A stretch of 64,000 nt of DNA. Source: Dehalococcoidia bacterium. GTDB taxonomy: Bacteria > Chloroflexota > Dehalococcoidia > UBA6926. The translations under genes and the position numbers were made by a program. The notes under the pieces were generated by a model that saw only the letters and a program-made list of their open reading frames with translations, searched no databases and was not told the origin of the DNA. Position 1 is the first letter of the stretch. Every line of letters begins with the position of its first letter. Location of the stretch: NCBI GenBank assembly GCA_965207895.1, contig CBDBNN010000003.1:451755-515754 (forward strand), in the 5' to 3' direction. Positions 12,917 to 36,184 of this stretch are shown piece by piece.

Positions 12917-12946
12917 GCGAAGCGGGATATAGAGTGGCGTCGCGGT

Positions 12947-14563: not shown

Positions 14564-14590
14564 TCTGCCTCCTGTCGTGTCCCTGAAATA

Positions 14591-14622
14591 AAGAAGACCC
14601 GCCTCCTGTCGGGAGCGGGTCT
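14591..14622 (-). promoter_or_regulatory. stem-loop followed by a T-tract immediately upstream of the integrase RBS (terminator/attenuator-like)
   Basis: Minus strand reads gacccgctcccgacaggaggcgggtc then cttctttatttc, then the RBS and ATG of the integrase. Confidence 0.35.
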
Positions 14623-14900
14623 GCGAGTAGTACAATCACTTCGCATCACCTGTTCCCGCAGGTGGCGCCACGGCCCGGGGTGTTTGCAGCACCGCCGGGT
14701 CAACTTCTATCTGCCCTCCATTTTACCGCGCTGGGCTGGAGGGAGTCAAAACGCGTCACCGGTCGGTGCTGCCTCCATTTGAATTGCTGACGCCAATCCC
14801 AGATTACCGACTAGACGCCGGTGAACCATGTCAACGGTCTTGGTGGCAGGTATTTCAGCCGAGCCTAGGTGCCGCCAATGGGTTCGGCGGGAACCGTCAT

Positions 14901-15383: not shown

Positions 15384-16589
15384 TCACTCCTCCCGGTCGT
15401 TTCCCGAGAGTGCGCCTCGCAGCTCTATCGCCTGCCGCGTCCGGTCGAGTTCCGCGGCTAGGATCGTCTCCTCTGGCAGGGTGATGCGGTACTCCCCGGC
15501 CATGACGTTGTTGGGCAGGCCGTCGAGGGCGTACCGCGCCAACGCCTCGTCCTTCTCGGAGCAGAGGATGAGTCCCACGGGCGGGTTCTCGCCCTCTCGA
15601 ACCCAGTGCTCCCGCGCGTAGTTCAGGTAGAGGTGCATCTGTCCGGCGTCGGCGTGGGTGAACGCCCCGATCTTCAGGTCGATGACCACGAGACACCGCA
15701 GACCACGGTGGTAGAAGAGCAGGTCCACCCTGTACCACCTGTTGCCGATGCGCAGGCGCCTCTGCCTGCCCATGAAGCAGAAGTCGTCCCCCAGCTCCAT
15801 GAGAAAGGTCTCCAGGTGGCGGATGAGCGCGTCTTCAAGATCGCTCTCGGAGTACTCGTCCTTGAGGCCGAGGAACTCCAGGACGAAGGGGTCCTTGATC
15901 TGCTCCTGGGGCAGCACGGCGTCTTCGGCATTGGGCTTCCGTCCCGACGTGAGCATGGCAGCCTTGTTCTTGGACAGGGCGGTGCGCTCGTAGAACTGGG
16001 AGGCGATCTGTCGGTCTAGCTGACGGACCGACCACCCTCCCCTCAGCGCCTCCGTCTCGTAGAACTCGCGGGCCTGCTCGTCCCTGACCGACAGCAGCCT
16101 CACGTAGGCCGACCAGGGCAACGGGAAGGCTGACAGCAGGTCTTCGAAGCCTACGCCGTCCGATGCGGTCATGAATTCTCCCGACGCCGTCGAGAGAATC
16201 CTCTGTCGATGGGATGAAGCCGATTTTCCCGACACTGTCGGGAGAATCCGGTCAGACGGGAACGAGAGGTAGAAGAGACGCATCTTGTAGATGCCCTGGA
16301 GGGAGAAGCCCCGACCGAACCTTCCGGTCAGGTCCTCAGCCAGTCTCTCGATGAGCGCCGCCCCGTACTCGGCCCGCTCCTCTCCCGACTGCTCGAACTC
16401 GACGATGCGACGTCCTATCAGCCAGTACGCGGCGGTCATGGCGGCGTTCACCGACCGAGCGGCAGAGTCTCTGGCCGCGTCGATGATTCTCGACACGTCT
16501 CCGAAGACAGCCTCGTACGGGGCGTCGTGACTGAGGGTTGAACGCCTCAGTGATGGCTGATTGCGGTTGGGGGACATCTCGGATGGCAT
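15384..16589 (-). CDS. DUF1016 (YhcG/RhuM-like) PDDEXK-fold nuclease family protein
   Basis: C-terminal block RVDLLFYHRGLRCLVVIDLKIGAFTHADAGQMHLYLNY matches the restriction-endonuclease-like core of DUF1016 proteins (D...D/E-x-K arrangement: DLLFY ... IDLK). Confidence 0.75.
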   Translation of the reverse strand: MPSEMSPNRNQPSLRRSTLSHDAPYEAVFGDVSRIIDAARDSAARSVNAAMTAAYWLIGRRIVEFEQSGEERAEYGAALIERLAEDLTGRFGRGFSLQGIYKMRLFYLSFPSDRILPTVSGKSASSHRQRILSTASGEFMTASDGVGFEDLLSAFPLPWSAYVRLLSVRDEQAREFYETEALRGGWSVRQLDRQIASQFYERTALSKNKAAMLTSGRKPNAEDAVLPQEQIKDPFVLEFLGLKDEYSESDLEDALIRHLETFLMELGDDFCFMGRQRRLRIGNRWYRVDLLFYHRGLRCLVVIDLKIGAFTHADAGQMHLYLNYAREHWVREGENPPVGLILCSEKDEALARYALDGLPNNVMAGEYRITLPEETILAAELDRTRQAIELRGALSGNDREE

Positions 16590-20080: not shown

Positions 20081-20749
20081 TCGGAAGTCGGGACACCACC
20101 GTAGCGAGTACGGTGCAGACTCTCGCCGAGGTGCGCCCAGCGTCCCGGCCATTCCTCATGCCTGCGGCGCAAACGTCACGCGGTTGGGTCGCAGCTTCAA
20201 CGCACGCCGTCCTGCTATGACTCCGCATGGCTGCGTCGCTCTCACGGCACCGGTCTCGGACCGATCTGCAGGCCGGACGCATTTCCTCTCACAGCAGCTC
20301 CCCGGTCCGCATCCCCGTGATATGACCCTGGACGAGCTGCGTTTTTCTCACCCCACTTCGTCCCCGCGTCCGGCATCCGACCGTGGGCGAAGTGCGTCTT
20401 GCGTCAAACGAACCCATCACACACACAACCCGCGCCCCGGATGCCGCGCGGGTCAGCAACATCAATATCAAGGAGGTGCACATGCACGTTGAGTAGTTAG
20501 TAGGCGAGACCAAGGGCGCCGGAGTCGGCATTGACGGCTTCACGCCCCCGCCTCTCGCACACAAGGCCCCCATAACAGTTGGCGAGCAAAGGGCCGCTTC
20601 TTCCTCCGCGCGAGGAAGGGTGGCCCTTCTCTTTGCCAGCAACGAACCCACGGAGACGGTCCCGGCTGCCGGGACATCAATTCGAGCGGGACTGTCTCCG
20701 CCCCACGGGGTGGCGGCCGTCCCGCTTCTTCATTGAAAGGAGAAGCGAC

Positions 20750-21907
20750 ATGACGACGGCAACCACACCAACGACCAATCGGCAGAACACGACGGAGACA
20801 ACGACGGATGCGGCAACGCCCGTTGAGGCCATGGGCAAGCCTGAGAGCGAACTCAGGGCGGTGGCCAGGAAGAAGGGCCTCACCATGAGGGAGCTTGCGG
20901 CCCTGATGGGCGTGAGCGCCAGCCACCTCTCCCAGGTCGGCACGGGCAAGAAGCCCTGGACCCCCAACCTGCGGGAGAAGGCGATGGCTGTGCTGGGCGA
21001 GGTCCCAGGACAGGGCTTCGTCTACCGACAGCGCGGCGAGGTCAATTCGGAGAGCAGCTACATCCGGGAGCAGGCACGGACGATGGGCTACACCATGCGG
21101 GAACTCTCCGACCGGTCGGGGGTGAGCTACTCCTACCTCACCCAGGTGGCCCGTGGCCGCCGCAACATGGGCGTCAAGGTGCAGGCCAGCATCGAATCGG
21201 CTCTTGGGGTGGCGGCCAGGGTCGCTCCGGCCAAGCTCGCCAACCGTCAGGGCGAGGTGGTCGAAGGGACGGACAGCAGCTTCATCCGGGAGACCGCCCG
21301 CGCCCTCGGCATCACCATGCGGGAGCTGGCCGAGAAGGTGGGCGTGTCCGCCGGGTACCTGTCCCAGGTGTCACGCGGGCACAGGAGCATGGGCGTGAAG
21401 CTTCAGGCTCGGGTCGAGGCTGTGCTTGGAGGGCGTGCGAAGGTCGCTTCCGCCCAGTGCCCCGACATCGACCGCCAGTTCATCTGGGAGCAGATGGACG
21501 CGCTAAACGTCAGCCAGAACGAGGTCGCGAGGCGGGCGGGCATCAGCTCCGGTCACCTCTCCCAGATCATGAACGGCCAGCGCAGCCCGTCCGCCGTGGT
21601 CATCAGAAAGCTGCACGGGGCGCTGTTCCGGCGCAGCCAAGACCCGCAGCGGGTGATGCCCGTTGCCATGAAGGTCCTGGGCTGGAAGAAGGGTGAGCGC
21701 AGCGGGATGGTGGTGCACGGCGCCCGTGGCCGGGACGGCACTGCCAGGGGCGGCGCGGTGCGCGTCGGCGGCCGGGTGCCCTGGGGCGCGAAGGTGGAGT
21801 ACGCCTTCCGCGCCGGGTACGACGGCAGGGGCAAGGTGTCGGTGGACCACGTGGTGGCGCCGAGCTGCTCCGCCCTGTTGATGCGGCCGGAGCCTACGAC
21901 CGCTTAA
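20750..21907 (+). CDS. protein with four tandem XRE-type helix-turn-helix domains
   Basis: Four repeats of the pattern (L/Y/I)TMRELAxxxGVSxxYLSQVxRGxR(S/N)M. RBS AAAGGAGAAG before the ATG at 20750. Gly/Arg-rich C-terminus. Confidence 0.75.
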   Translation: MTTATTPTTNRQNTTETTTDAATPVEAMGKPESELRAVARKKGLTMRELAALMGVSASHLSQVGTGKKPWTPNLREKAMAVLGEVPGQGFVYRQRGEVNSESSYIREQARTMGYTMRELSDRSGVSYSYLTQVARGRRNMGVKVQASIESALGVAARVAPAKLANRQGEVVEGTDSSFIRETARALGITMRELAEKVGVSAGYLSQVSRGHRSMGVKLQARVEAVLGGRAKVASAQCPDIDRQFIWEQMDALNVSQNEVARRAGISSGHLSQIMNGQRSPSAVVIRKLHGALFRRSQDPQRVMPVAMKVLGWKKGERSGMVVHGARGRDGTARGGAVRVGGRVPWGAKVEYAFRAGYDGRGKVSVDHVVAPSCSALLMRPEPTTA

Positions 21908-22274: not shown

Positions 22275-23003
22275 TCACAGGGGCAGCGACTCTCCGCTCT
22301 CCCGAAGATGCTGGCGACGCCGCTGCGCGTCCGGCATCACCGAAGCAATGAGTGTCCAGAACTCCGGTGAGTGGTCCCGGTGGGTCAGGTGCGCCAATTC
22401 GTGGACGACGACGTATTCCATCAGCGCCGGTTTCACCATCATGGCGCGCCAGTTGAAGCGCAGCGTCCCGTCGGGCGCGCAACTTCCCCAACGCTGACGC
22501 TGGTCGCGCACCAGCACACGAATCCTATCTCCATGTCCAAGCCGCGGCGTCCACCGTTCGACGACCTCTTCAAGTCTCTCTTGGGCGCGCGAGCGGTACC
22601 AGCGCACTACTGCTCGGCGGATCGACTCGTAGCGTTCATCGCCGCTCAGTCCCTTCGGGGCGGCGACCCGGAACCTCCAGTGATCGAAGCGGACTTCCGC
22701 CCTGCGCACGTCTGCGTCCTCCACAACCATGCGGACGTTGCGGCCCAGATAGGGTAGCGTCTCCCCGCTCACGAAGCGCTTGGGGGCGGTTTCCAGCATC
22801 CGGTCCGAGGCGTGACTCAGTATCCAGCCAGCCCGCTTCCGCACAATGGCGCGCAATTCGTTGACGGGCGTGGTCGTCGGCGCGACGACCTGCACCCCGC
22901 CGCCATCCACCGTGATCTGGACGGTCTTCCTGCGCCGACTGCTGCGTCGCACCTCGTAGTCGATGCTGGTATCGCCGAAGCGTACACGGCCCTCCTCGGT
23001 CAC
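22275..23003 (-). CDS. DUF45/YgjP-like zinc metallopeptidase (WLM/SprT-like)
   Basis: HELAHLTHRDHSPEFW zinc-binding motif. GTG start overlaps the hsdR stop (GTGA). This family is commonly linked to Type I R-M loci. Confidence 0.8.
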   Translation of the reverse strand: MTEEGRVRFGDTSIDYEVRRSSRRRKTVQITVDGGGVQVVAPTTTPVNELRAIVRKRAGWILSHASDRMLETAPKRFVSGETLPYLGRNVRMVVEDADVRRAEVRFDHWRFRVAAPKGLSGDERYESIRRAVVRWYRSRAQERLEEVVERWTPRLGHGDRIRVLVRDQRQRWGSCAPDGTLRFNWRAMMVKPALMEYVVVHELAHLTHRDHSPEFWTLIASVMPDAQRRRQHLRESGESLPL

Positions 23004-26000
23004 TGCCCGCTCCGGCGGCTGGCAAGCTCGACTATCCGGCTGGCCAACTCCTCCAGCTGGTCTTCGGTGTAGTCGCCCTTGGGTCTGAGTTCGCGCTTGA
23101 TGTCCCGGCGCATCAGCCGCCTGACATCCTCGTTCACATGCCAATCCACGACCCTGCTGCGCTGGGCGACGACCGACTCGATCCTCAGGGCAACGCTCCT
23201 GGCCTCCTCATCTATCTGAACGTGGTAAACGCCCTGCTCCTCTGCGATGTGCCGGGGAGGAACCTCTCCATTCTCCGGGCGTCTTTCCAGCAGCGCGTAG
23301 ATGGCGAAGGAGGTGGGTGAGAGACCGAACTCCGCCGCGATGTCGGCCTCGCTTCGCATCCGTCCCCGCACCTCAGCGTAGCGCCGGCACGCCTCGGCAG
23401 CGTCTATCACCCTGTTGCGCAGATCGTCGATGATGCGGGCCAGCTGTTCGGACAAGCGCTCGTAGAATGCGGGATTGTCTCCCAGACTCTCGTGGATCTG
23501 GGAGCGGATGGCGTGCTCCATGATGGACGCCCGCGCCTCGTCGTGGGGCAGGGCGGCGATCTTCTGGTCGAAGTCCCGGTCGAGGATGGACACCGGCCGC
23601 ATCATCTCCCGCACCTGGGCGCTGATGCGCTCGTCCACCAGCTTCTTCACCTTGGCCCCAATCTCCGTCCAGTCGATGTCGGCGTCCTCGCGAAGGAATT
23701 GGGCGCGCACGTAGGCGCGTATCTCCGTGAGCCGCGCCAGCCGGTCCGTGTAGTCCAGCGCGCGCGGGTCCGGCAGGAATCGGTCCATGAGACGGGAGAA
23801 ACCCCGGTAGTCGGCGTTGAACCGCTCGAATACGTGAGCCTTGAGGTTGCCCTCGGTGCTGGCGTCGGGCGCGAAGACGCTGACGCACGCCCAGGTGTCG
23901 CTCAGGTCCCGGCCCTTGAAGTGTGACTCGGCCTGGACGGCCGCGGCCTCGACGACCGACGCCGGGTCCTCGTCCATCTCCTGCATCGTGCCCTGCACAT
24001 CCGACCAGTCGAATGTTGAAAGAACGTCTTCGAGGTCCCGAGATACGCCGTGGTAGTCCACGACCAAGCCGTGGGTCTTTTCGGTCTCCGCCCCGTCCTT
24101 TCTATGCGAGAACCGGCGGTTGACCCTCGCAACGGCCTGAAGCAGCCCGTGCTCCCGCAGCGCTCTATCCAGGTAGAGCACCTGCTCCACGGGCGCGTCG
24201 AACCCGGTCAGCAGCATGTCCACCACGACCAGCACCTCCGGCTCGCCCTCCGGATCGACGAAGGCGCTTTCGACCTGTCCCTGGTCGAGTTCGCGCGCCG
24301 CCTTGAACTCCGGCCCGTCGTTTGGGGCTGTGGTGATGATGGGATAGGCGCTGAGGCCGAAATCCTTCAGTCGGCTGGCGTACCGGAGGGCGGCTACCCG
24401 GCTGGGCGCAACCACCTGGGCCTTGAACCCGTTGGGGCGAATCTTCGCCTTGAAATGCTCGGCGATGTCTAGGGCGATCATCTCGATGCGTCGCTCCGCC
24501 TCAGCCACCGTCTCTTTGTTGGCGTAGCGTCGGCGAATCTGCGCTTGGACAGCGGGCGGCTCGTCGCCGAACATGGCATCGTAGAGCTTGTCCAGGGTCT
24601 CCGGCCCCTCGATGGCAAGCTCGGGCAGGCGCGCCTCGTAGAAGATGGGCACCGTCGCGCCGTCGGCCACCGACTGGGGGATGGTGTAGGTGTCGATGAG
24701 CGAGCCAAAGCGCCCTATGGTGTTGCGCTTGAAGCCCTTCTCTATGGGCGTTCCGGTGAACCCGATGAGCGCCGCGTTGGGCAGCGCTTTGGAGAGCCGT
24801 CCCCCGAGGATGCCGTACTGCGTGCGGTGCGCCTCGTCCACCATGACGATGACGTTCTCCGAGGCGTTGAGCACGTCAAGCTCGCCCTCGGGGGTCGTCA
24901 GCGCCTCCTCGAACTTCTGGATGGTCGTCATGATCGTGCGGCCCGCGCCCGTGGTGAGCAGACGACGCAGGTCCCGGCTGGTCGCCGCCCGCTCCGGCGC
25001 AGGGAAGCCGCAACGCTCGAAGGTGCCGGTGATCTGCCGGTCCAGTTGCGTGCGGTCGGTCACCACGACAATCGTGGGATTGCCCAGACGAGGCTCCCGA
25101 CGCAGCCTCGTCGCCAACCACAGCATGGTCAGGGACTTGCCCGAACCCTGCGTGTGCCAGACCACGCCGCCCCGTTCCTCCGGCTTCAGGCCGGTGAGCA
25201 ATCGCTCCAACCCAGCGCGAACCGTGCGGTACTGCTGGTAGCGTGGCAGCTTCTTAACCACACGTCCCCGCTCCGGCTCATAGACCACATAGTCGCGGAG
25301 GATGTCCAGCAGGGTTGCGGGAGGCAGCAGGCCGACGATGAGCTGGGCCTGCCCCTGGGGTTCGACCCCGTACCTCTGCCTCACGTCGTCCTCGGAATGG
25401 CTCCCAAGCCATTTCCACTCGAAGTAGGCGTTCTCCGGCGCGCCGATGGAGGCGTACGCGGCAGCGGCCCCGCAGTGTGCGACGCACAGCAGGTTGTAAT
25501 GGAAGAGCTCGGGAGCGCCGCTCCCGCGCCACTCCGGCCCTGCCTCCTGGTAACGTCGCAACTGCCGCACCGCGTTGGTCTTCCACACGTCCAACAAGGA
25601 AGGCGACTTCGCCTCCATCACCACTAGGGGGATGCCGTTGACGAACAGCACGATGTCGGGAATGACCATGCGTTCGTCGTCCTCGGCGCCGCCTCTCTCG
25701 TTGGCGCGGCGGACGCGGAACTGGGTGGTGACGACGTACTCGTTGAGTCCGCCTTCAGGATGGTCGAAGTCGAAGAAACGAACGATCCGCGAATCCCTGC
25801 CCTGCGGCCCGTCAACGGTCAAGGGCTTGCCATAGGTCAGATACTCGTGGACCGCCTGGTTGCGGCCCATGCCGGTGGCGTCGATGTGCTCAAGGTCGAA
25901 GATGACCCGCCCGGCCTGGGCCTCGGTCATCCATTCGTTCAGACGAAGCAGGGCCGCTCTCAGGCGCCCCTTCAAGAGCACCTCCCGCTCGTCGCCTCGC

Positions 26001-26131
26001 TCCGCCGCCAGCGCCTCGCGCGGCACGTAGGTCCAACCCAGCTTCTCCAGCAAGCGCCTCGCTGGGTCCTCGGCGTGGTTGAATTCGTTGAGCTTGGAGG
26101 GTGTGGTCATAGGACTCCTAGCTACCCTCAT
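23000..26131 (-). CDS. hsdR: Type I restriction enzyme R subunit
   Basis: N-terminal nuclease motif (PDIVLFVNGIPLVVMEAK), SF2 helicase motifs (WHTQGSGKSLTM; VIVMVDEAHRTQ) and a long C-terminal domain. The start may be the internal MTTPSKL (about 26110). Confidence 0.95.
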   Translation of the reverse strand: MRVARSPMTTPSKLNEFNHAEDPARRLLEKLGWTYVPREALAAERGDEREVLLKGRLRAALLRLNEWMTEAQAGRVIFDLEHIDATGMGRNQAVHEYLTYGKPLTVDGPQGRDSRIVRFFDFDHPEGGLNEYVVTTQFRVRRANERGGAEDDERMVIPDIVLFVNGIPLVVMEAKSPSLLDVWKTNAVRQLRRYQEAGPEWRGSGAPELFHYNLLCVAHCGAAAAYASIGAPENAYFEWKWLGSHSEDDVRQRYGVEPQGQAQLIVGLLPPATLLDILRDYVVYEPERGRVVKKLPRYQQYRTVRAGLERLLTGLKPEERGGVVWHTQGSGKSLTMLWLATRLRREPRLGNPTIVVVTDRTQLDRQITGTFERCGFPAPERAATSRDLRRLLTTGAGRTIMTTIQKFEEALTTPEGELDVLNASENVIVMVDEAHRTQYGILGGRLSKALPNAALIGFTGTPIEKGFKRNTIGRFGSLIDTYTIPQSVADGATVPIFYEARLPELAIEGPETLDKLYDAMFGDEPPAVQAQIRRRYANKETVAEAERRIEMIALDIAEHFKAKIRPNGFKAQVVAPSRVAALRYASRLKDFGLSAYPIITTAPNDGPEFKAARELDQGQVESAFVDPEGEPEVLVVVDMLLTGFDAPVEQVLYLDRALREHGLLQAVARVNRRFSHRKDGAETEKTHGLVVDYHGVSRDLEDVLSTFDWSDVQGTMQEMDEDPASVVEAAAVQAESHFKGRDLSDTWACVSVFAPDASTEGNLKAHVFERFNADYRGFSRLMDRFLPDPRALDYTDRLARLTEIRAYVRAQFLREDADIDWTEIGAKVKKLVDERISAQVREMMRPVSILDRDFDQKIAALPHDEARASIMEHAIRSQIHESLGDNPAFYERLSEQLARIIDDLRNRVIDAAEACRRYAEVRGRMRSEADIAAEFGLSPTSFAIYALLERRPENGEVPPRHIAEEQGVYHVQIDEEARSVALRIESVVAQRSRVVDWHVNEDVRRLMRRDIKRELRPKGDYTEDQLEELASRIVELASRRSGQ

Positions 26132-27086
26132 CGAAAGTAGTTGAACTCCAATGACTGGCTACCCTAAGCACGTAATCGGCACAGATTATGGCATTCAGGG
26201 CTTGCCTGCTTGTATTGTATGCAGCAAAACCGTGACTAGCCGCATGGCGATTCGGTGTCGGACTGTGCCTGATTTCTTCCAGGTTCTCGCTCTCCACCCG
26301 AGCGTAGAGTTCGTGCATGATGTATTTGATGACGACCCACTCGTGGCGACCATCCCAGATCAAATTTCTAAACGGTGTATGACCTACTCGCTCCTGGATT
26401 TCTCCGTACTGCCCGCTCTTCGTTCCTTCGATACCGAGCAAGTCCTCACGAATCACTTTCTCGATTAGAGGCAATACTCCGTAACAGGCTGAGCGAAAAT
26501 AACCTAGCCTATAGACCTCCAACGCTTCACGGACCGCGCTCTTGTCTTCGTCATCTACTGAGTAATCCGATAAGCGCGTGGATATGTCTTCAACTATCTC
26601 GCTTGTACATTCACTGTAATACCGGTCTACGAGGTCGCTGAACGTGCTCTCGTCGTAACTTGAGTCGTCCAAGAACTGTGCAAACGGAACAGTTCTATAT
26701 GGGAGCCATCCGGTGGTTGTGCTTGCCTCTTCCATTCGTTGTTCAAATGCAAATGGATTGGGAAGCTTCAGCACGTCCAACGAGGGGAGCCAGGTGTTTG
26801 GCTGCAAGGTAATCTGGGTTATCTCTGATATGGCCCCCAATTGTTGTGTCAACAGGTGAGCCATAAGGGAAGTCATGCGACTCTGGTCAAGGATCGACTG
26901 TAGACCGCTCGTCATGTGTGCCAACGAGCTTTGCCATCTACCCAATTGCCCTTCCATGATACTGGCCTGAATCTTGAAGGAGTCATCCCACAGCTTGCTG
27001 AATGACGCTGTTATCTGATTCATATCGCTCATCACGTGACGCAGGTCCTCATGGGAGGTACCGCGAACATCATCTTCAGTGCTCAT
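26118..27086 (-). CDS. hypothetical protein on an AT-richer segment inside the R-M operon; possible HEPN-like (R-x4-H) protein
   Basis: Clean 322-codon ORF with 14-nt and 4-nt overlaps with neighbours. C-terminal NRHAASHG fits the Rx4-6H HEPN signature. Composition is clearly AT-richer than hsdS/hsdR. Confidence 0.6.
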   Translation of the reverse strand: MSTEDDVRGTSHEDLRHVMSDMNQITASFSKLWDDSFKIQASIMEGQLGRWQSSLAHMTSGLQSILDQSRMTSLMAHLLTQQLGAISEITQITLQPNTWLPSLDVLKLPNPFAFEQRMEEASTTTGWLPYRTVPFAQFLDDSSYDESTFSDLVDRYYSECTSEIVEDISTRLSDYSVDDEDKSAVREALEVYRLGYFRSACYGVLPLIEKVIREDLLGIEGTKSGQYGEIQERVGHTPFRNLIWDGRHEWVVIKYIMHELYARVESENLEEIRHSPTPNRHAASHGFAAYNTSRQALNAIICADYVLRVASHWSSTTFDEGS

Positions 27087-28351
27087 AGCTGCTTTGCCGC
27101 CGTCCTTCCATGCATACGAACGCGACCCGTCAGCAGCGCCTCTGACGCCGATCCCTTCAGTGCTTGCAGCCTTTCCCGCTCCTCGTGCCCCTGCTCAATG
27201 GCCGAGTCTACGCCAGTCAGCACTGAGGCGATGGTCTGCTGCTCTCGCAACGCCGGAAGTGGAATCGAAAGAGAGTTTGTAGCACCCAGCGTCAGGCCAA
27301 AGCGAGTGACTCCATTGGCGATGCGAGCAAACCGGCTTGCCGTCCGTGGAGACCCTAGTAGCTCAGCCAGATACGCGCCATCGGCTAGCTCCATGCGCGG
27401 TCGTGCCAATCCCAGGTGATAGCCACACAGGACTGTTGGCATATCCGCAGTCACATAGGCGGGAATCCCGATTTCATCTGGCGTTTCCGAGTCCTTCGTG
27501 AAGAGAACGTCGTTCTTCCGCAACGCCCATCGGTCACACTCAACCGGGCTAGCGGTCGCAGCCATAAAGCGCATTCCAGGTCGGATTCGGCGACTGTAGA
27601 AGACATCCGTGTAGTTGCAGAGTTCAACCGGAACCTCGCCGTCCACGGTTCTCTTATCGACGCTACTGAAAGCTACCTCCGTCACATCCCCCAGCCGTAC
27701 CACCTCCCAGTTCGCCGGTATCGTCCCGATGCCCGGCGCTTCCTTCCACTCTGTGTGCCAGCCGGGGACACCGCGGGTGAGGAGTTCGTGTAGTAGAGAG
27801 TCGCGCAGTTGCTCGGTGGCGGCGATGGCTGCATCCGTCCTCTCGATTGCTTCATCGATGCCGTCCAGCACGGCGGCGATGGCCCGCTGTTCGGGTAGTG
27901 GGGGGAGTAGGATGGGGAGATTGCGCAAGTGTGTCCAGGATGTTCTTGGCATCTTGGTCCCACCGACTCCACGCATCGCGTATTCATAGGTCTGGTCGCC
28001 ACGAAGCAAGTGACTGAGAAAGGAACTGTCTGCCTCGCTGCCACCGAATATGGCGAGGATGTCGGTCGAGCAAACGCCGTCAAACTGTGCTCGAATCACT
28101 TTTCTCAGGTTTGGACGAAGCTTCCCGTAAAGCGTGTCACCCTCTCGGAAGAGAGTCTTGTTGCTGATCGACTCTCCCGCTCTTCCGTACCCGTTCAAAG
28201 CCCCCTCAGCAATGATGTGTTCAAGGGCAATGTAAGGCCGGTGATCGTGTTTCGTGGGTTTGACTTGCTCCATGCGGAGATTCGCCACATCCCCCAACTG
28301 CACTACCTGCCAGCCGTCGGGTATCGTCCCATTGTCTCCTGAACGTCCCAT
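27083..28351 (-). CDS. hsdS: Type I restriction specificity subunit (two TRDs)
   Basis: Two target-recognition domains each followed by the conserved L-x-x-L-P-x-L-x-E-Q-x-x-I block (LPPLPEQRAIAAVL; LPALREQQTIASVL). Confidence 0.9.
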   Translation of the reverse strand: MGRSGDNGTIPDGWQVVQLGDVANLRMEQVKPTKHDHRPYIALEHIIAEGALNGYGRAGESISNKTLFREGDTLYGKLRPNLRKVIRAQFDGVCSTDILAIFGGSEADSSFLSHLLRGDQTYEYAMRGVGGTKMPRTSWTHLRNLPILLPPLPEQRAIAAVLDGIDEAIERTDAAIAATEQLRDSLLHELLTRGVPGWHTEWKEAPGIGTIPANWEVVRLGDVTEVAFSSVDKRTVDGEVPVELCNYTDVFYSRRIRPGMRFMAATASPVECDRWALRKNDVLFTKDSETPDEIGIPAYVTADMPTVLCGYHLGLARPRMELADGAYLAELLGSPRTASRFARIANGVTRFGLTLGATNSLSIPLPALREQQTIASVLTGVDSAIEQGHEERERLQALKGSASEALLTGRVRMHGRTAAKQL

Positions 28352-28359
28352 CGGTCTCT

Positions 28360-28710
28360 TCAGTTACCTTCGTCCGTGGGCGGGCGTATCTCGTGGATGG
28401 TCACCGGAAGTCCTGCCCGCTTAGCTTCCAGCCAGCGTTTGAAGGAACGCTGGCTTTCTCCGGAGGGCCATCCTCCCAACAGCATTTCCACGCTGATGTC
28501 CTCATCCAGGGCAGGCCAGTGGATGCCCTCGCCAGCGCCTATCAGCCGCCAGTTGTGGCGTTCCTCAGGCGTGGCGTGGATGAGCCTGGGATACCAGGAC
28601 AGTGGCACCGACACGGTCCGCCCGTCGGAGAGCTCTGCGGTCAGGGTATCGTCGGTCACCTCGACCGTCATGGCCTCCGGCACACTCACCTTAAGCGTTG
28701 AAACGTTCAT
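28360..28710 (-). CDS. DUF2442 family protein
   Basis: Size and sequence pattern of DUF2442. Overlaps the DUF4160 gene by 20 nt, the usual pairing. Confidence 0.65.
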   Translation of the reverse strand: MNVSTLKVSVPEAMTVEVTDDTLTAELSDGRTVSVPLSWYPRLIHATPEERHNWRLIGAGEGIHWPALDEDISVEMLLGGWPSGESQRSFKRWLEAKRAGLPVTIHEIRPPTDEGN

Positions 28711-28927
28711 TCCAAGCCTCCAGAAACGAATTCTGATTTTCCTCGACTATCTTCTCGATGCGGCGTATCTCATGCCGCCTCAATCCGCCTGTCTGTTGAA
28801 GCCTGACCGGCTCCAGCCAAAACTTGGCGATGCGGTCATCGCGTTCGACGTGAATGTGGGGAGGCTCTCCCCGGTCGCTCGCGTAGAAGAAGAACCGGTA
28901 CGGCCCCTCCCTCAGTATGACCGGCAT
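28691..28927 (-). CDS. DUF4160 family protein
   Basis: MPVILREGPYRFFFYASDRGEPPHIHVE is the hallmark N-terminus of DUF4160. Confidence 0.7.
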   Translation of the reverse strand: MPVILREGPYRFFFYASDRGEPPHIHVERDDRIAKFWLEPVRLQQTGGLRRHEIRRIEKIVEENQNSFLEAWNERFNA

Positions 28928-28942
28928 GGTCCACCAAGCCTC

Positions 28943-30469
28943 CTATCTGGCATAGCCCATCTCCGCCAGAAGTTCGTCCATCCTGGCCACCGCCTCATCC
29001 CGCCGCTGCTCCGCCTCTCTCAGTTGAGCCAGCGCCTCCTCTACCGGCATCACCTCAACCGGTTCCGTGGTGTCCACGTAGCGGCTGATGTTCAGGTTGA
29101 AGTCGTTGCCCTGTATCTCCTCAAGCTCTGCGACGTGGGCGAATCGCTTCACGTCCTCGAAGTCCCTGTACGCCTCAACGATCCTGCTTATGTGCTCCGG
29201 GTCGATGAAGTTTTGAGCCTTGCCGGGACGGAAGTAACCCTCTTGGGCCGCGTCCACGAACAGCACCTTCCCCCGCCTCTCCACAGGCTTGGCCTTGTTC
29301 AGCACGCAGATGGCGACGGGGATGCTGGCCCCGAAGAAGAGATTTGGGGTTAGGCCGATCACCGCCTCGAACAGGTCGGCCTCAACGATGCCCCGCCGTA
29401 TCCTTCCCTCCGCTCCGCCACGGAACAGGATTCCGTGGGGCATGACCACGCCCACCATGCCCTGGGAGTTGGTCACTCCCAGCATGTGCAGCAGGAAGGC
29501 GAGGTCGCCCCTGGTTCTGGGCGGCGTTGCACCGTAGCGGTCAAAGCGGTGGTGCGGGTCGTTGGGAGCGAAGTCATGCCCCCAGTTTTTGAGGCTGAAG
29601 GGAGGATTGGCGATAACCCGGTCGTAGGACAGTAGCCGTCCTGACTGGTCCACAAGACCCGGCTCCGCTATCACGTCACCAGCCTCCAATCGACCGGCGC
29701 GGAGCCCGTGAAGGAGCAGGTTGAGCTTGCCGATTGCCAGAGTACCGAGGTTCCGCTCTTGGCCATGCAGCGCGAGGTTCCGGTAGTCTCCGCCCTGTTC
29801 CCGCACGTACTGCGCCGCATAGATGAGCATCCCCCCGGAACCGGCTGTCGGATCGCAGATGCGCATCCCTTCTCGGGGTTGGAGTAACTCGATGATGAGC
29901 CGCACCACCGAGCGGGGCGTGTAGAACTCGCCGCCCTTCTTGCCGGCGTCGTCGGCGAACCGGTTGATCAGGTACTCGTAAGCGTCTCCCAGCACGTCAC
30001 CGCCCCCTGCCGCGTCCCTGCGCAGGTTCTCGTCGCTCAGGTCCAAGTCGCCAAAGTGGTTCAATAGGCTGCGGATGATGCGCTCCCGGTTGGCCGGACT
30101 GCCCAGCTTCGACTCGTCGTTCCAGTTGTTCGGAGCCAGTACGCCTTCCAGCCTGGGGTTGGCCTCTTCAATCGCATGGCTGGCCACGTTGAGCGCCTCT
30201 CCCAAGCCCATGGTGGCTCCCAGGAGAGTGGTCCATCGGGCGGATTCAGGGACGAAGAACTCGTGCTCGTCCTGGTCGGTGAGCGCAACCTCACGGGCAA
30301 CGCCCGACTCCACCGCGCCCTCAACCTCCTCGTCGAAGCGGTCGGAGAGCCGCTTGAGGAAGAGGATGGAGAAGATGTAATTCTTGTAGTCGGCGGCGTC
30401 GATCTGCCCGCGCAGAATGTCGGCGGCCTGCCACAGCTTGGACTCAAGCTCCTGTTTAGTGAGTGGCAA
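28943..30469 (-). CDS. hsdM: Type I R-M N6-adenine DNA methyltransferase subunit
   Basis: N-terminal HsdM_N block (LWQAADILRG ... YKNYIFSILFLKRLSD), AdoMet motif and NPPF catalytic motif. Confidence 0.95.
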   Translation of the reverse strand: MPLTKQELESKLWQAADILRGQIDAADYKNYIFSILFLKRLSDRFDEEVEGAVESGVAREVALTDQDEHEFFVPESARWTTLLGATMGLGEALNVASHAIEEANPRLEGVLAPNNWNDESKLGSPANRERIIRSLLNHFGDLDLSDENLRRDAAGGGDVLGDAYEYLINRFADDAGKKGGEFYTPRSVVRLIIELLQPREGMRICDPTAGSGGMLIYAAQYVREQGGDYRNLALHGQERNLGTLAIGKLNLLLHGLRAGRLEAGDVIAEPGLVDQSGRLLSYDRVIANPPFSLKNWGHDFAPNDPHHRFDRYGATPPRTRGDLAFLLHMLGVTNSQGMVGVVMPHGILFRGGAEGRIRRGIVEADLFEAVIGLTPNLFFGASIPVAICVLNKAKPVERRGKVLFVDAAQEGYFRPGKAQNFIDPEHISRIVEAYRDFEDVKRFAHVAELEEIQGNDFNLNISRYVDTTEPVEVMPVEEALAQLREAEQRRDEAVARMDELLAEMGYAR

Positions 30470-31088
30470 CTAGCGCCTCTCCCATTGATGTGTATACGGC
30501 CCTGCGGCCGATGTCATGGATTACGGAGTCCCTAAGTGTCTCGCGTCGCAGGCGGGCGACCTCGACCGCCGCAACGTAGGCATCCTCGGACACCTCCACG
30601 AGTCTGGCCACTGCATCAAGCTCTCCGTCGGACAGTAATGGAATCTCGATCTCTCCCAAGCTACGTGCGGATAGAGTCGTCACCGTGGCGTTGACCACCA
30701 GCCGCTTGGCGAGTTGCGCTCGGCCCTGGGAGGAAGTGAGGAAATACCAGAGCCAGTGTCCCAAGCCGGATTCGGGTCGCTTGGGCCGCACCACCAGCAA
30801 GGTTACACCTGCAACCGTACGCGACACGCCGGGTGGCACAAGCGCGGTCTGAAGCGACCCTGCGCGGGCCGTCACCAGTATGTCGAAGGGTCTCAGCAGG
30901 TGGCGCTCGGTGCGCAGGGTGCGCACGACTCCCACTTCCCGAAGACCGTGTGATTCCAGCCAACCGTCGTCACGCAGGTCGCCGCTCTCGACGATGCGGA
31001 GCATCCAGTCGCCGCGTTGCGATCCGGCCCCGCGTCCAGCTTGGGCGAGGCCCTGGTGTACATGGGCGAGGTCTGCAACACATGCCAT
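30456..31088 (-). CDS. HsdS-like protein with a single target-recognition domain (half-S)
   Basis: FDILVTARAGSL ... VVRPK ... WLWYFLTS ... IEIPLLSDGELDAVARLVE follows the TRD plus conserved-linker pattern of HsdS. It is only about 210 aa and overlaps the hsdM start. Confidence 0.5.
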   Translation of the reverse strand: MACVADLAHVHQGLAQAGRGAGSQRGDWMLRIVESGDLRDDGWLESHGLREVGVVRTLRTERHLLRPFDILVTARAGSLQTALVPPGVSRTVAGVTLLVVRPKRPESGLGHWLWYFLTSSQGRAQLAKRLVVNATVTTLSARSLGEIEIPLLSDGELDAVARLVEVSEDAYVAAVEVARLRRETLRDSVIHDIGRRAVYTSMGEALVATH

Positions 31089-31173: not shown

Positions 31174-31890
31174 CTAGCCTCGCCTCCAAAGCTTACCTCG
31201 TCGGGCCGGAGAGGTCTGTAAGGCTACCCTACCTTCTATCGATCCTCGGCTGCTTCCAAATCGGCTGTCCATGAGAACCGTATTTTTTTGTGTCCGCTTT
31301 CGTGTCGATTGGCAGACGAAGAAGGACTTTGATGCATACGCGATCTCTCTCAGGCTGTCAGTCGCCTGGCGTACCCCGAAGACTGCGCCGACCAACAGCC
31401 ATATCCTGACCTCTGTTTCCTCGTTCAGCTGCAGAACACCCTCCTCGAACAGGTCGTCCCACCCATACAGGTACATCAACTTCTGGGCGCATACCACCGC
31501 ATGCCAATTGAGTTGGGCAATGTCTGCCGGAAGCGTCGCTGCCATCAGCCATCCCCCAGGCAGACCGGCGGCGAAGGAAACGCTGGATGACTTGACGATA
31601 TGCGACATGATGATCGCATCGGCCATCCGGTCAAGCGTTTCCATAGGCACGCCGGCCGCAAGAGGCGTTGTCGCGATCGCCTTCCCGACCTCGATGCTGT
31701 TCTGGGCATAGTAGCGATCCAGCTGTTTCCCCAGGAACGTTCTGCGGTCCACCTTCAGTCCTGGGATAGCCGTCATCGCAGGCAGCAGCCGTCGCAGAAT
31801 GGGGTGAGAATGACTATCCCCACGCCCGTTCTTGCTCTCACTTTCCACGCCGCCATCCTCGTCTTGCGTCCGCGTTGATATGTCGGTCAC
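31174..31890 (-). pseudogene. EcsC-family gene, N-terminal part, disrupted by the integrative element
   Basis: The first ~190 residues look protein-like (AAGLPGGWLMAATLP ... LMYLYGWDD). From about residue 192 the ORF reads low-complexity junk (STRKRTQKNTVLMDSRFGSSRGS...). The displaced C-terminus is at 12746-12916. Confidence 0.45.
31288..31307. repeat. right copy of terminal imperfect inverted repeat (candidate att half-site)
   Basis: 16/20 match to the reverse complement of 12991-13010. Confidence 0.4.
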
Positions 31891-32012: not shown

Positions 32013-32291
32013 TTACTTGAGCTTTATGTGCTGAATCAATTCTAGGAATTTTGTGGCATCCTTTTCCCGCTCACTAAGGGTAGTCGTATGGATATAGAGA
32101 TCCGGCGAACGCTCAAGAAACCTCTCCATGAGCCGTCGCTTCTCGCTTTCGACTCGATTCAACTGAGAGGGTTCATATACTAGCAACAGGTCGATGTCGT
32201 TTGGGGAGTCGACGCGAAGGCCTGAACCAAACAAATATGCTTCACTGAAACAGTCGCTGATCAGCGAAGCGATAAAAGAGTAGTCTTGCAC
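32013..32291 (-). CDS. minimal nucleotidyltransferase (MNT, Pol-beta superfamily)
   Basis: hG[GS] and DxD signature LFGSGLRVDSPNDIDLLLVY. AT-rich segment. Confidence 0.75.
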   Translation of the reverse strand: MQDYSFIASLISDCFSEAYLFGSGLRVDSPNDIDLLLVYEPSQLNRVESEKRRLMERFLERSPDLYIHTTTLSEREKDATKFLELIQHIKLK

Positions 32292-32298
32292 CGTTCAT

Positions 32299-33474
32299 CT
32301 ACTTCAGATTGTTATGGGCATAGGCGAAAAACGCAGTTTGATTCGCGAGCCAAACGCCAATCGACTCAGCAAAGTCTTGAGCATCCGCACTTACTGGGCC
32401 GCCATTCCAGTTATGTAGATTTATCACGATGTCACCTTTGTCCAAGGTCATTCCGTGGAGATCAGAGAGAGAAAGTACGTATTTGTAGCACAGGATTACC
32501 GTAACCTTGTCCGCTATAAGCAATTTGGTCAGCTGAGGGAAGTCCGGGAAGCTGTAGCGAATCTGATTCCTTTCCAGCCAATTCGCGAAGAAGACGAGAT
32601 CACTTAGGCGTACATCTGTCGTATGTGCCCTATAATGATGACCATTCCAAAAGATTTGCTGCAGCCTTGGGCGGTCTTCCAAGCTCATTTCAACTACCTC
32701 CCCGTCTTGGAGGTATGCGACGCTTGGGTGGTCTCTAAAGTTCAACGTAACGAGGTTGTCATTAGCAGAGATGACCGACAAAAAGTTCTGGAAAGCTGAC
32801 AGGCTAGGGGGATAGCCGCGCCTCTGAGGTTTAATGCCGAAAAGGGATAATAGACCATCCGGGAAAAATAATATGCGCTCCATAGGCTGGTCTGCTCTCG
32901 TGTGGAGAAACTCATGGGAATGGGCAACGAACTGCTCGACCACGTTTTTGTTCTCGCGGTGCAGGAGGTGTTTGTTCTTAGTCAATAAGAGCTCTAGACG
33001 TTGGTTGTTGCTAACCAGTGCGTTTTCAAATTGACGCCACAGTTTCCCGCTGATGGCTTCTTGGTTTTCGCTATGGGGACCGTAGTCATCAAAAATCTGT
33101 TCATTTCGTTGCAAGAGAGGGACTACGGCACGCTCTAAATCTGCAAAAGAGTTGAATCTCTTTGCAAAGAGGGCATCTAGAGATTTCTTTCTGGAGGCTT
33201 TCCATTGCTGGAGCATCAAGATTGTAGTAGAGGTCCTGTCACTATCTGTAGTTCTGTGGCAGTTGGGGCAGAGGAGGAGTAGGTTATTGGGCTCTATAGA
33301 GCCTCCCCCTGCATGCGGTTCAATGTGAGCAATGTCGGCAATACTCTGCCCATCAACTATGAGTTCGGATTGACAGCTCGGATTCATGCATAGGCCTGCC
33401 GATTCGGACCAAAGTAGTCGCTGGGTGGTAAGTGGGACTGGGGGTCTAGTCATCACAGATACCCAGCGAATCAT
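32299..33474 (-). CDS. HNH endonuclease-domain protein with an uncharacterised ~280-aa C-terminal domain
   Basis: N-terminal C-x4-C ... IAHIEPHAGGGSIEPNNLLLLCPNCH HNH motif. AT-rich. 7-bp gap to the downstream MNT gene, so an operon. Confidence 0.75.
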   Translation of the reverse strand: MIRWVSVMTRPPVPLTTQRLLWSESAGLCMNPSCQSELIVDGQSIADIAHIEPHAGGGSIEPNNLLLLCPNCHRTTDSDRTSTTILMLQQWKASRKKSLDALFAKRFNSFADLERAVVPLLQRNEQIFDDYGPHSENQEAISGKLWRQFENALVSNNQRLELLLTKNKHLLHRENKNVVEQFVAHSHEFLHTRADQPMERILFFPDGLLSLFGIKPQRRGYPPSLSAFQNFLSVISANDNLVTLNFRDHPSVAYLQDGEVVEMSLEDRPRLQQIFWNGHHYRAHTTDVRLSDLVFFANWLERNQIRYSFPDFPQLTKLLIADKVTVILCYKYVLSLSDLHGMTLDKGDIVINLHNWNGGPVSADAQDFAESIGVWLANQTAFFAYAHNNLK

Positions 33475-33530: not shown

Positions 33531-34406
33531 CTATTCGAACGCGGGCATGCCGCAGAAGGCTTCGTAGTCGATGAGTTCCGTCACCGTCGGGTTCTCGCCG
33601 CATGCGGGGCAATTCGGATCCTTGCGGATCTTGACCGTCCGCATGTCCATGTCCAGCGCATCGACCATCAGCAGTCGATTCACCAGCGGCTTGCCGACGC
33701 CCAGGATCAGCTTGATGGCCTCTGTGGCCATGAGGGAGCCGATGATGCCCGGCAGCACGCCAAGCACGCCAGCCTCCGCGCAGGAGGGAACCATGCCGGG
33801 GGGCGGCGGCGCGGGGTACAGGCAGCGGTAGCAGCCCTTCTCGGGCAGGAACGTCGTTACCTGCCCGTCAAACATGAAGATTGAACCGTGCACGACGGGC
33901 TTGCCCGTCAGCACGCCGAGGTCGTTGATGAGGTACCGCGTGGGGAAGTTGTCCGTCCCGTCGATGAGGATGTCAAACTCCTCCGCGATCTCCATGGCGT
34001 TCTCAGAGTTGATATGCTTGGCGATCTTGACGATGTCTGCGTCCGGGTTGATCTCCCGGATGGTGTCCTCGGCGGAGTCGACCTTGGGGCGGCCGATGTC
34101 ATCGTGCCCGTGCAGTAGTTGTCGGTGCAGGTTGGTGATATCGACGTCATCGAAATCGACGATGCCGATCTTGCCGACACCGGCGGCGGCCAGGTACATG
34201 GCGAGCGGGGAACCGAGCCCGCCGGCCCCGATGAGCAGCACGCTCGCGTCCATCAGCTTGCGCTGCCCGATGCTGCCGACCTGCGGCATGATGATGTGCC
34301 GACTGAATCGTTGCACCTGCTGCGGCGTCATCACGCGCGGGGGGTCAATCGGAGCGGTTGCCGCGACACCGTTCGCAGTCGTTGTCCTCTCTGTTGTCGT
34401 CGCCAT
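33531..34406 (-). CDS. moeB: molybdopterin-synthase adenylyltransferase MoeB/ThiF (E1-like)
   Basis: Rossmann GAGGLGS, ThiF-family core and a C-terminal CxxC...CxxC zinc motif (CYRC ... CPAC). Confidence 0.85.
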   Translation of the reverse strand: MATTTERTTTANGVAATAPIDPPRVMTPQQVQRFSRHIIMPQVGSIGQRKLMDASVLLIGAGGLGSPLAMYLAAAGVGKIGIVDFDDVDITNLHRQLLHGHDDIGRPKVDSAEDTIREINPDADIVKIAKHINSENAMEIAEEFDILIDGTDNFPTRYLINDLGVLTGKPVVHGSIFMFDGQVTTFLPEKGCYRCLYPAPPPPGMVPSCAEAGVLGVLPGIIGSLMATEAIKLILGVGKPLVNRLLMVDALDMDMRTVKIRKDPNCPACGENPTVTELIDYEAFCGMPAFE

Positions 34407-36107: not shown

Positions 36108-36184
36108 TGGCGCGCCCGGCAGGATTCGAACCCGCGACCCTCGGTTCCGAAGACCGATGCTCTACTCCACTGAGCTACGGGCGC
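36108..36184 (-). tRNA. tRNA-Arg (TCG)
   Basis: Cloverleaf by eye: acceptor GCGCCCG/CGGGCGC, D arm GCTCAGTGGAGTAGAGC, anticodon stem TCGGT/ACCGA with loop CTTCGGA, T arm GCGGG-TTCGAAT-CCTGC, discriminator G and encoded CCA. Confidence 0.8.

Follow-up and report, generated by a model that had tools for sequence, protein, structure and literature searches.

What is encoded by the GC-poor gene that separates hsdS from hsdR in this type I restriction-modification (R-M) operon? The 64,000 nt stretch of Dehalococcoidia DNA analysed here (hereafter the window) carries at this place a clean ORF of 322 codons, which we call gene X. The original prediction, made from the sequence, suggested that it might be a HEPN-type RNase toxin transcribed together with its neighbours. 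We consider it moderately likely that gene X is a stand-alone protein of the HEPN superfamily, representing a new family, and provides a second line of defence as an RNase toxin that is coupled to R-M.

The ORF listing of the window confirmed 322 uninterrupted codons on the minus strand, closed by a TAG stop codon at 26118-26120. Gene X belongs to an eight-gene minus-strand type I R-M operon in the order half-S-like gene, hsdM, DUF4160, DUF2442, hsdS, gene X, hsdR and YgjP-like gene (Table 1). Its two neighbours are what they had been taken for, as Pfam identified hsdS by PF01420 and hsdR by PF04313, PF18766 and PF11867. The half-S-like gene is also kept upstream of hsdM at the homologous loci L002, L006 and L007, and the YgjP-like gene also follows hsdR at L001-L003, L006, L007, L090 and L091. 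The true start of the YgjP-like gene is probably near 23003.

Gene X had been described as overlapping hsdS by 4 nt and hsdR by 14 nt. The first overlap stood, since the ATG of gene X shares an ATGA with the stop codon of hsdS, and this start codon is supported by a 48% identical homologue (locus L001), in which the N-terminus M-S/T-x-E-D-D-V/I-R is retained. The second overlap arises when hsdR is read as its longest ORF, which starts at 26131 (23000-26131). However, six homologous HsdR proteins begin with MT(T/S)P..LNE, and in hsdR of the window this position falls on the second ATG, at 26110. An AGGAG sequence located four bases upstream of this ATG overlaps the TAG stop codon of gene X. Judged from these sequences, the 14 nt overlap is probably a longest-ORF artefact of start-codon choice; most likely, the two genes are separated by a 7 nt gap with the stop codon of gene X lying within the ribosome-binding site of hsdR. 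The coupling of gene X to hsdR stays tight even with the revised start. Because of the ATGA overlap, the stop codon inside the hsdR ribosome-binding site, and the fact that no minus-strand terminator was found inside the operon, the best reading is that gene X would share its transcript with the type I restriction enzyme and be translationally coupled to both hsdS upstream and hsdR downstream.

The lower GC content of gene X relative to both neighbours was also confirmed. The GC and GC3 values are 0.503 and 0.573 for gene X, 0.587 and 0.641 for hsdS, 0.655 and 0.854 for hsdR, and 0.628 and 0.807 for hsdM. Among equal-sized windows, 3.6% are as GC-poor as gene X.

Table 1. Features of gene X and the surrounding type I R-M operon (window coordinates).
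Feature	Coordinates	Strand	Evidence
Promoter-like site, sigma-70-like, just upstream of the half-S-like gene	31123-31095		
Half-S-like gene, single TRD, operon opener	30456..31088	-	PADLOC Specificity_I / mad5, 8e-8 to 3e-7
hsdM	28943..30469	-	PF02384 6e-94, PF12161
DUF4160 small protein, first of the DUF4160-DUF2442 pair between hsdM and hsdS	28691..28927	-	ORF listing; PF13711 8e-20
DUF2442 small protein	28360..28710	-	PF10387 1.6e-22
hsdS, two target-recognition domains	27083..28351	-	PF01420 E 3.8e-24; stop overlaps gene X start
Gene X, HEPN-like protein	26118..27086	-	ORF call; 44 close and ~450 distant homologue clusters; N-terminus conserved with L001 homologue
Gene X, N-terminal helical extension, residues 1-110	26757..27086	-	Full-length AF2 model: helices 12-58 and 68-93, pLDDT 50-72; alignment A1
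Gene X, conserved all-alpha domain, residues 111-319, predicted HEPN fold	26130..26756	-	Domain-only AF2 model; Foldseek PDB; region shared family-wide
Gene X, E209-K-V-I-R213, Ex3[KR] motif (HEPN helix-2 acidic residue) in the long helix before the insert	26448..26462	-	Translation; alignment A2 columns
Gene X, N279-R-H-A-A-S-H-G286, R-x4-H catalytic-type motif with polar H281 after R	26229..26252	-	Translation; alignment A2 columns
Shine-Dalgarno AGGAG of hsdR	26115..26119	-	Read directly from the sequence; overlaps gene X TAG
hsdR, full-length, revised start 26110	23000..26110	-	PF04313 (HSDR_N), PF18766, PF22679, PF11867 (SWI2_SNF2, T1R_D3 and T1RH-like_C also among the domains); N-termini of six homologues
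YgjP-like metallopeptidase, operon closer	22275..23144	-	PF01863 1.4e-54, match begins at residue 73

Gene X is a genuine gene with many homologues. A word-indexed search retrieved 44 relatives, and an exhaustive search of 1.84 billion representatives retrieved 453 clusters at E <= 1e-3, 316 of which at E <= 1e-10. The family thus comprises about 450 clusters at 50% identity and is found in high-GC environmental bacteria. All members share a domain of about 200 aa, corresponding to residues 110-312 of gene X, while the regions N-terminal to it vary from 0 to about 250 aa; the extension formed by residues 1-110 of gene X is present only in its closest homologues. The family has a signature of its own, GWLP[HY]RT ... 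PEIERVxR ... PNRHAxxHG ... SLN. The sources that name any of the members call them 'hypothetical protein', and the listed members contain no Pfam domain.

To assess the HEPN reading, we aligned the 44 homologues (A1), 136 diverse representatives (A2) and the domain alone (A3). The prediction had relied on the string NRHAASHG, which is present at residues 279-286, as an instance of the HEPN signature Rx4-6H. The string alone is not informative: gene X contains three R-x4-6-H strings, and shuffles of its sequence contain 1.9 on average, with a probability of 0.87 for at least one. It is the conservation across homologues that lifts this site above chance. Residues 280-285 form the only conserved R-x4-6-H site of gene X (43/44 in A1 and 136/136 in A2), the other two strings not being conserved, and R280 and H285 are the sole invariant columns of A2. 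E209 is retained in 135 of the 136 sequences, N279 and P278 in 134 each, G286 in 133, H281 in 132 (three others have N) and R213 in 119. A HEPN domain typically shows Rx4-6H, its R is followed directly by a polar residue (in most cases N, D or H), and helix-2, further upstream, holds an acidic residue that usually belongs to Ex3[KR] (PMC3710099). All three occur in gene X as R280-H281-x3-H285 and E209-x3-R213.

Three other positions conserved in the family, H192, R202 and E207, are replaced in the window's copy (H192Y, R202Y and E207L), and its codon usage is atypical, with a GC3 of 0.57 in an operon with GC3 values above 0.8. Both features would be expected if this copy of a real family were decaying or inactive, but we regard this as very improbable. 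The frame runs intact over its 322 codons and still encodes E209, R213 and both residues of the core dyad. R202 and E207 are also substituted in the 48% identical homologue at L001, which indicates features of the clade rather than decay. In addition, four near-identical gene X sequences are found in independent assemblies, and the low GC3 recurs in all homologues embedded in type I operons.

The gene X family lies outside every current profile library. Gene X matched nothing relevant among the Pfam, PADLOC, NCBIfam and PHROGs profiles. When the 44 and 136 family members and the consensus of the HMM were compared with Pfam, NCBIfam and PADLOC, the matches were sporadic, confined to the variable N-termini and of coiled-coil or HTH type only. 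In HMM-versus-sequence comparison, no HEPN-clan Pfam model was matched by gene X, by the 44 and 136 members or by the consensus at E values up to 10. The Pfam models of AbiV, AbiJ/Abi_C, AbiU2, Abi_2, DUF4145, RnlA/LsoA and Swt1 were matched by no member nor by the consensus; the sole Abi-type Pfam listing, AbiTii in one member at an E value of 1.1, is noise. Against PDB sequences, phmmer with gene X returned noise only, the A2 profile was swamped by coiled-coil matches from its N-terminal columns, and the domain-only A3 profile had no match at E = 10. A tblastn search of plasmid and phage collections gave no match, and a profile search of a 5.8-billion-protein database for remote annotated relatives gave unnamed family members alone among the matches listed. 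Most HEPN families have been defined by profile-profile comparison (HHpred). The analysis gave no confident fold other than HEPN, and the R and H proved conserved in homologues, so that neither of the two outcomes named beforehand as refuting the prediction arose. The HMM profiles examined here did not provide a profile-level link to HEPN.

The predicted structure is in line with the motif analysis. The domain-only AlphaFold (AF2) model is confident (pLDDT 94, pTM 0.92) and all-helical, and places the motifs where they are expected in a HEPN domain. In the numbering of this model, helix 90-109 (predicted at 197-216 of the full-length protein) bears Ex3R and is followed by a variable helical insert, a short distorted helix with Rx4H and a long last helix. 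This order agrees with that of helix-2, insert, helix-3 and helix-4 described for HEPN domains (PMC3710099). When the full-length and domain models were compared with 350,542 PDB chains using Foldseek, the top four matches were both times the HEPN proteins 1wol, 1ufb, 1o3u and 2hsb, and the next was the HEPN RNase AbiV. The target TM scores of the top four ranged from 0.48 to 0.62 with E values of 0.6-2.2, none of which is significant, and this fold evidence is consistent with HEPN rather than decisive. Among the viral models of BFVD, a single match covered the whole domain; its target is an uncharacterised siphovirus protein (prob 0.99).

With HEPN homology missing at the profile level and the fold matches statistically non-significant, the likeness to HEPN might be superficial. 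Gene X could then be a non-nuclease helical accessory of R-M, with a role in assembly, regulation or nucleic-acid binding, or a metal-dependent hydrolase with H281-x3-H285 as ligands; the HxxxH spacing and the conserved E187, H192 and E209 could in principle bind metal, and inactive binding domains are known among proteins of the HEPN fold (PMC3710099). We judge this explanation quite unlikely. It is improbable that a non-HEPN protein would combine by coincidence the invariant R and H of Rx4H with the polar residue and Ex3R, placed in the helices where a HEPN domain has them, and the four best matches out of all PDB chains were HEPN proteins without exception. Moreover, three members have N instead of H281, a change that a HEPN domain tolerates but a metal ligand would not. 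Taken together, motif conservation, predicted topology and the weak fold matches make HEPN homology of gene X quite likely, and the HEPN-type reading of the original prediction is supported to this extent.

We compared the genomic context of gene X homologues to see whether the linkage to R-M extends beyond the window. In the window's clade, gene X is located directly after hsdS in 9 of the 12 loci, within the same hsdM...hsdS-X-...hsdR-YgjP operon. The hsdS-X order in this operon type was found at L001, L002, L003, L006, L007, L088, L090 and L091, and the 4 nt overlap is often repeated. The three remaining members of the clade adjoin other methyltransferases or nucleases or reside in a prophage-like region. 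A pattern scan of GTDB reference genomes yielded 80 further loci in Alphaproteobacteria, Gemmatimonadota, Chloroflexota, Latescibacterota, Acidobacteriota and others. Type I genes are nearby in only 8 of 87 loci, by which we rejected a type I linkage of the whole family; as most members lie away from type I genes, gene X cannot be an obligate Hsd subunit.

The neighbours at the further loci were clustered, and the clusters were annotated with Pfam, except for a PIN-like cluster, which was judged by eye. This PIN-like gene (without Pfam match) is present at 13 loci, a type ISP-like methyltransferase at 7 and a HEPN_RES_NTD1-RES toxin at 4, each mostly immediately upstream of the gene X homologue on the same strand. 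An MmeI-type R-M enzyme is present at 9 loci, mostly downstream on the opposite strand, and Dcm, a serine recombinase and IS21 IstB are found near gene X homologues at a few loci each. The context tracks phylogeny, with type I genes beside the window's clade and MmeI-type and ISP-like R-M enzymes beside other clades. Separate clades of one family have each settled beside a different class of R-M enzyme.

The low GC3 is not restricted to the window. Across the family, GC3 of gene X is below that of its neighbours by a median of 0.13 (-0.13), and it is the lowest in the locus in 27 of 73 cases. It is the type I operons that show the largest deficit, with hsdS taking an intermediate value there. 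A family-wide low GC3 fits a mobile defence gene. Low GC as an inherent property of the family was rejected, as the copy in the prophage-like region at L004 has a GC3 of 0.78, like its neighbours.

The hsdM-hsdS and hsdS-hsdR gaps of sister operons also carry PhdYefM-PIN, MazE-PIN and MNT genes; therefore, these gaps of this type I lineage are cargo slots for toxins. Gene X might accordingly be a HEPN-type toxin that occupies the variable hsdS-hsdR slot as selfish addiction or stabilisation cargo, in the style of toxin-antitoxin (TA) modules and with no functional sensing of restriction status. The classical TA modules held in the sister slots (those named above and DUF4160-DUF2442) point in this direction, as do the relatives that stand by themselves in surroundings that are prophage-like or rich in recombinases or IS elements, and the low GC3 common to gene X and hsdS suggests an often-exchanged cassette. 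However, no conserved small partner that could be an antitoxin is found beside gene X in the type I clade. Furthermore, the tight coupling of gene X directly after hsdS and the repeated pairing of clades with three R-M types argue for a functional, not merely positional, linkage. We therefore think that selfish cargo is an unlikely explanation and prefer a toxin whose function is coupled to R-M.

How might such a toxin work? If gene X works like the HEPN defence proteins that have been characterised, its protein would pair with a second copy of itself, and the R280/H285 dyads, assisted by H281 and E209/R213, would build an RNase site that needs no metal. RNase activity of gene X is likely on this analogy. 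The enzyme may cut cellular or phage RNA (tRNA, rRNA or mRNA) and thereby arrest translation, acting as a second line of defence. In healthy cells, either contact with the Hsd complex, as the PrrC model has it, or the variable N-terminal helices of the protein itself would keep it silent, and it would be released once a phage disables or overwhelms restriction. Gating by restriction status is the more tentative part, which we consider possible but less likely than not.

The closest precedent for this logic is PrrC. The prr locus is organised as prrA-prrB-prrC-prrD, that is hsdM-hsdS-prrC-hsdR, with prrC in the same hsdS-hsdR slot as gene X, and PrrC requires its ABC ATPase and dTTP. The anticodon nuclease PrrC, a relative of RloC, is a HEPN-type effector encoded inside the type IC locus EcoprrI (PMC3710099, PMC12707154). 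Gene X would likewise be a HEPN-type effector gene inside a type I hsd locus. PrrC acts as a guardian of R-M from within this locus ('RM guardian'; PMC12707154), and the logic proposed for gene X would be similar in that an RNase is silenced by the R-M enzyme and freed when a phage blocks restriction. In contrast to PrrC and RloC, gene X lacks the N-terminal Rad50/SbcC-like ABC ATPase head and has a variable coiled-coil-like N-terminus instead. As had been noted from the sequence, neither Pfam nor the all-helical AF2 models revealed an ABC ATPase or P-loop domain in gene X. It also has no detectable sequence similarity to PrrC. Membership of gene X in the PrrC/RloC group was rejected on account of the absent ATPase domain.

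The 'different architecture' suggested earlier for gene X thus holds relative to PrrC but not as a new kind, since at least 16 R-M-linked HEPN clades have been described, many of them solo proteins, for which a second layer of defence was proposed by analogy with PrrC (Anantharaman et al. 2013, PMC3710099). Gene X resembles these solo R-M-linked HEPN proteins of abortive infection and defence, such as AbiU2, AbiJ / Abi_C lacking the NTD (e.g. SadR), Abi2/Swt1-like and DUF4145 proteins, which have a single or short HEPN domain with R-polar-x3-5-H and are located in or beside R-M operons and in defence islands (Anantharaman et al. 2013). For the solo HEPN Abi proteins, an RNase that aborts infection has been inferred, and it was shown for SadR and AbiV (PMC3710099, PMC13590631). 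In SadR/AbiJ, a solo HEPN protein without an ATPase domain, mutation of any of the three motif residues (R, polar residue, H) abolishes both RNase activity and defence (PMC13590631). Gene X differs from these proteins in its larger domain of roughly 200 aa, the extra N-terminal helices and its own signature. A solo HEPN protein in an R-M operon is hence of a kind documented since 2013, while the gene X family itself is uncatalogued.

If our reading is true, an uncatalogued and fairly large family joins the HEPN effectors that back up R-M, concentrated in poorly studied high-GC environmental groups (Chloroflexota, Gemmatimonadota, Latescibacterota and Alphaproteobacteria), and supplies a model missing from PADLOC, DefenseFinder, Pfam and NCBIfam for annotation. 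Because the same domain occurs beside type I, MmeI-type and ISP-like enzymes, it would also offer a compact, ATPase-free system for studying the coupling between an RNase toxin and the state of a restriction enzyme. A bolder version, which we hold to be improbable, is that the family constitutes a minimal ATPase-less 'restriction-failure sensor': the variable N-terminal helices would dock on the cognate R-M enzyme, whether type I, MmeI-type or ISP-like, and the HEPN RNase would fire when that enzyme is inhibited or stalled. Were this so, gene X would be a general modular guardian plugged repeatedly into three R-M classes, with a mechanism distinct from PrrC and from PARIS.

The two remaining groups matched by fold differ from gene X in other respects. 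AbiV of Lactococcus (PDB 9bj6/9bj7), a HEPN RNase from an antiphage system with two components, is a defence protein of similar size whose fold match covers about 183 aligned columns, but the match probability is low (0.1-0.2). In AbiV, the canonical H is typically missing and another H takes its role (PMC3710099), whereas gene X has the canonical Rx4H. The best structural matches, ST0689 (1wol), TT1696 (1ufb), TM0613 (1o3u) and AF0298 (2hsb), are minimal HEPN proteins (HEPN-T) of MNT-HEPN TA pairs, with which the gene X model shares the predicted four-helix core and the placement of the motifs. The domain of gene X alone is, however, about 80 residues larger, the E values are non-significant, and gene X is flanked by hsdS and hsdR instead of an adjoining nucleotidyltransferase antitoxin. 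As a separate observation, the only ORF in the window that looks like a nucleotidyltransferase (by eye, without Pfam match) is located at 32013-32291, 5 kb off and outside the operon.

In this type I restriction-modification (R-M) lineage, the slots between the genes behave like landing pads for toxin-like cargo. The hsdM-hsdS slot is occupied by a DUF4160-DUF2442 gene pair in the window and in five homologous loci of the type I operon clade (L002, L003, L006, L007 and L088), while another locus of this clade, L091, harbors PhdYefM-PIN in its place. The hsdS-hsdR slot of L088, L090 and L091 carries antitoxin-PIN or MNT genes besides the gene for the HEPN-like protein, hereafter X.

The hsdS and X genes constitute a module of low GC at third codon positions (GC3) in the window and likewise in L001, L002, L003 and L006. 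In these five operons, GC3 is 0.46-0.57 for X and 0.62-0.65 for hsdS, in contrast to 0.81-0.93 for hsdM and hsdR. A single recent transfer was ruled out as the source, because the low GC3 recurs in loci whose X proteins share only 34-58% identity. The bias could instead result from frequent cassette exchange or from selection for poor codon usage in a toxin. At the downstream end of this module (window 26108-26131), hsdR most likely starts at the ATG at 26110 rather than at 26131. An AGGAG sequence at 26115-26119 overlaps the TAG stop codon of X, and thus termination of X and initiation of hsdR are physically coupled.

The operon opens with a single-domain S-subunit-like ORF of 210 aa, which overlaps the hsdM start and weakly matches the PADLOC type I specificity models and MADS mad5. 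Its homologues are located 5′ of hsdM in L002, L006 and L007, and it is possibly a second, half-size specificity subunit. After hsdR lies a gene for a YgjP-like zinc metallopeptidase, found at this position also in L001-L003, L006, L007, L090 and L091. Taken as its longest ORF, the gene would extend 145 nt into hsdR; since the Pfam match begins only at residue 73, translation probably initiates close to the stop codon of hsdR.

Residues 192, 202 and 207 of X (about 26466-26513) are Y, Y and L in the window. Among 136 diverse aligned family members, these positions are H in 134, R in 118 and E in 118, respectively. R202Y and E207L are common to the window protein and its nearest relatives, and H192Y appears to be specific to the window copy. 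The N-terminal extensions in the same alignment are anywhere between 0 and about 250 residues long; the sensor/regulatory end thus differs greatly from member to member, against a constant HEPN-like domain. One member carries an N-terminal winged-HTH of the ArsR/MarR type, and several have long coiled-coil N-termini.

X has other partners in other clades. In 13 loci of one clade (L020, L022, L027, L032, L039, L042, L044, L046, L047, L053-L055 and L070), from Gemmatimonadota, with one locus from Bryobacterales and one from a gammaproteobacterium, a co-oriented gene of ~160 aa lies immediately 5′ of X and frequently overlaps it. The product has no Pfam match and looks PIN-like by eye. Further on, 7 of the 13 loci have an MmeI-type R-M gene in convergent orientation. 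The ~160-aa gene and X may together form a toxin module, or one may encode a toxin and the other its antitoxin. In four loci (L008, L016, L041 and L078), a protein with HEPN_RES_NTD1 and RES domains is encoded 5′ of X on the same strand, and its gene directly abuts X in L008 and L016. As HEPN_RES_NTD1 is otherwise fused to the HEPN domains of the MAE_18760 family, this arrangement hints at a common regulatory logic.

The R-M operon lies inside a region that looks like an integrated island (window 12946-36184), which also contains DUF433. Just upstream of the operon, a 238-aa ORF belonging to no Pfam family matches PDC-S30, a phage-defence candidate of PADLOC (E 8e-48) and adds a further uncharacterised defence candidate next to the R-M system.

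Positions of the members of the putative island, the operon genes and examples of X partners
Feature	Position	Strand	Remarks
Large serine recombinase	12946-14703		Island member
YhcG/DUF1016 PDDEXK nuclease	15384-16589		Island member
Protein with four XRE-type HTH repeats	20579-21907		Island member
YgjP-like gene	22275-23144	-	
hsdS + X	26118-28351		Low-GC3 module
DUF4160-DUF2442 pair	28360-28927		
S-subunit-like ORF	30456-31088	-	
238-aa ORF	31174-31890		
92-aa ORF	32013-32291		Nucleotidyltransferase-looking by eye; precedes HNH protein
HNH protein	32299-33474		Island member; within GC-poor stretch
ThiF	33531-34406		Island member
tRNA-Arg	36108-36184		After ThiF and DUF433
~160-aa gene before X	L055:1222-1710	Same as X	
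HEPN_RES_NTD1 + RES-domain protein	L078:3695-4984	Same as X	

In two homologous loci (L006:1-3419 and L007:797-3420), the type I operon with X directly adjoins CBASS-type genes, namely SMODS and ThiF/E1 in both and SAVED in L006, which confirms the defence-island setting.
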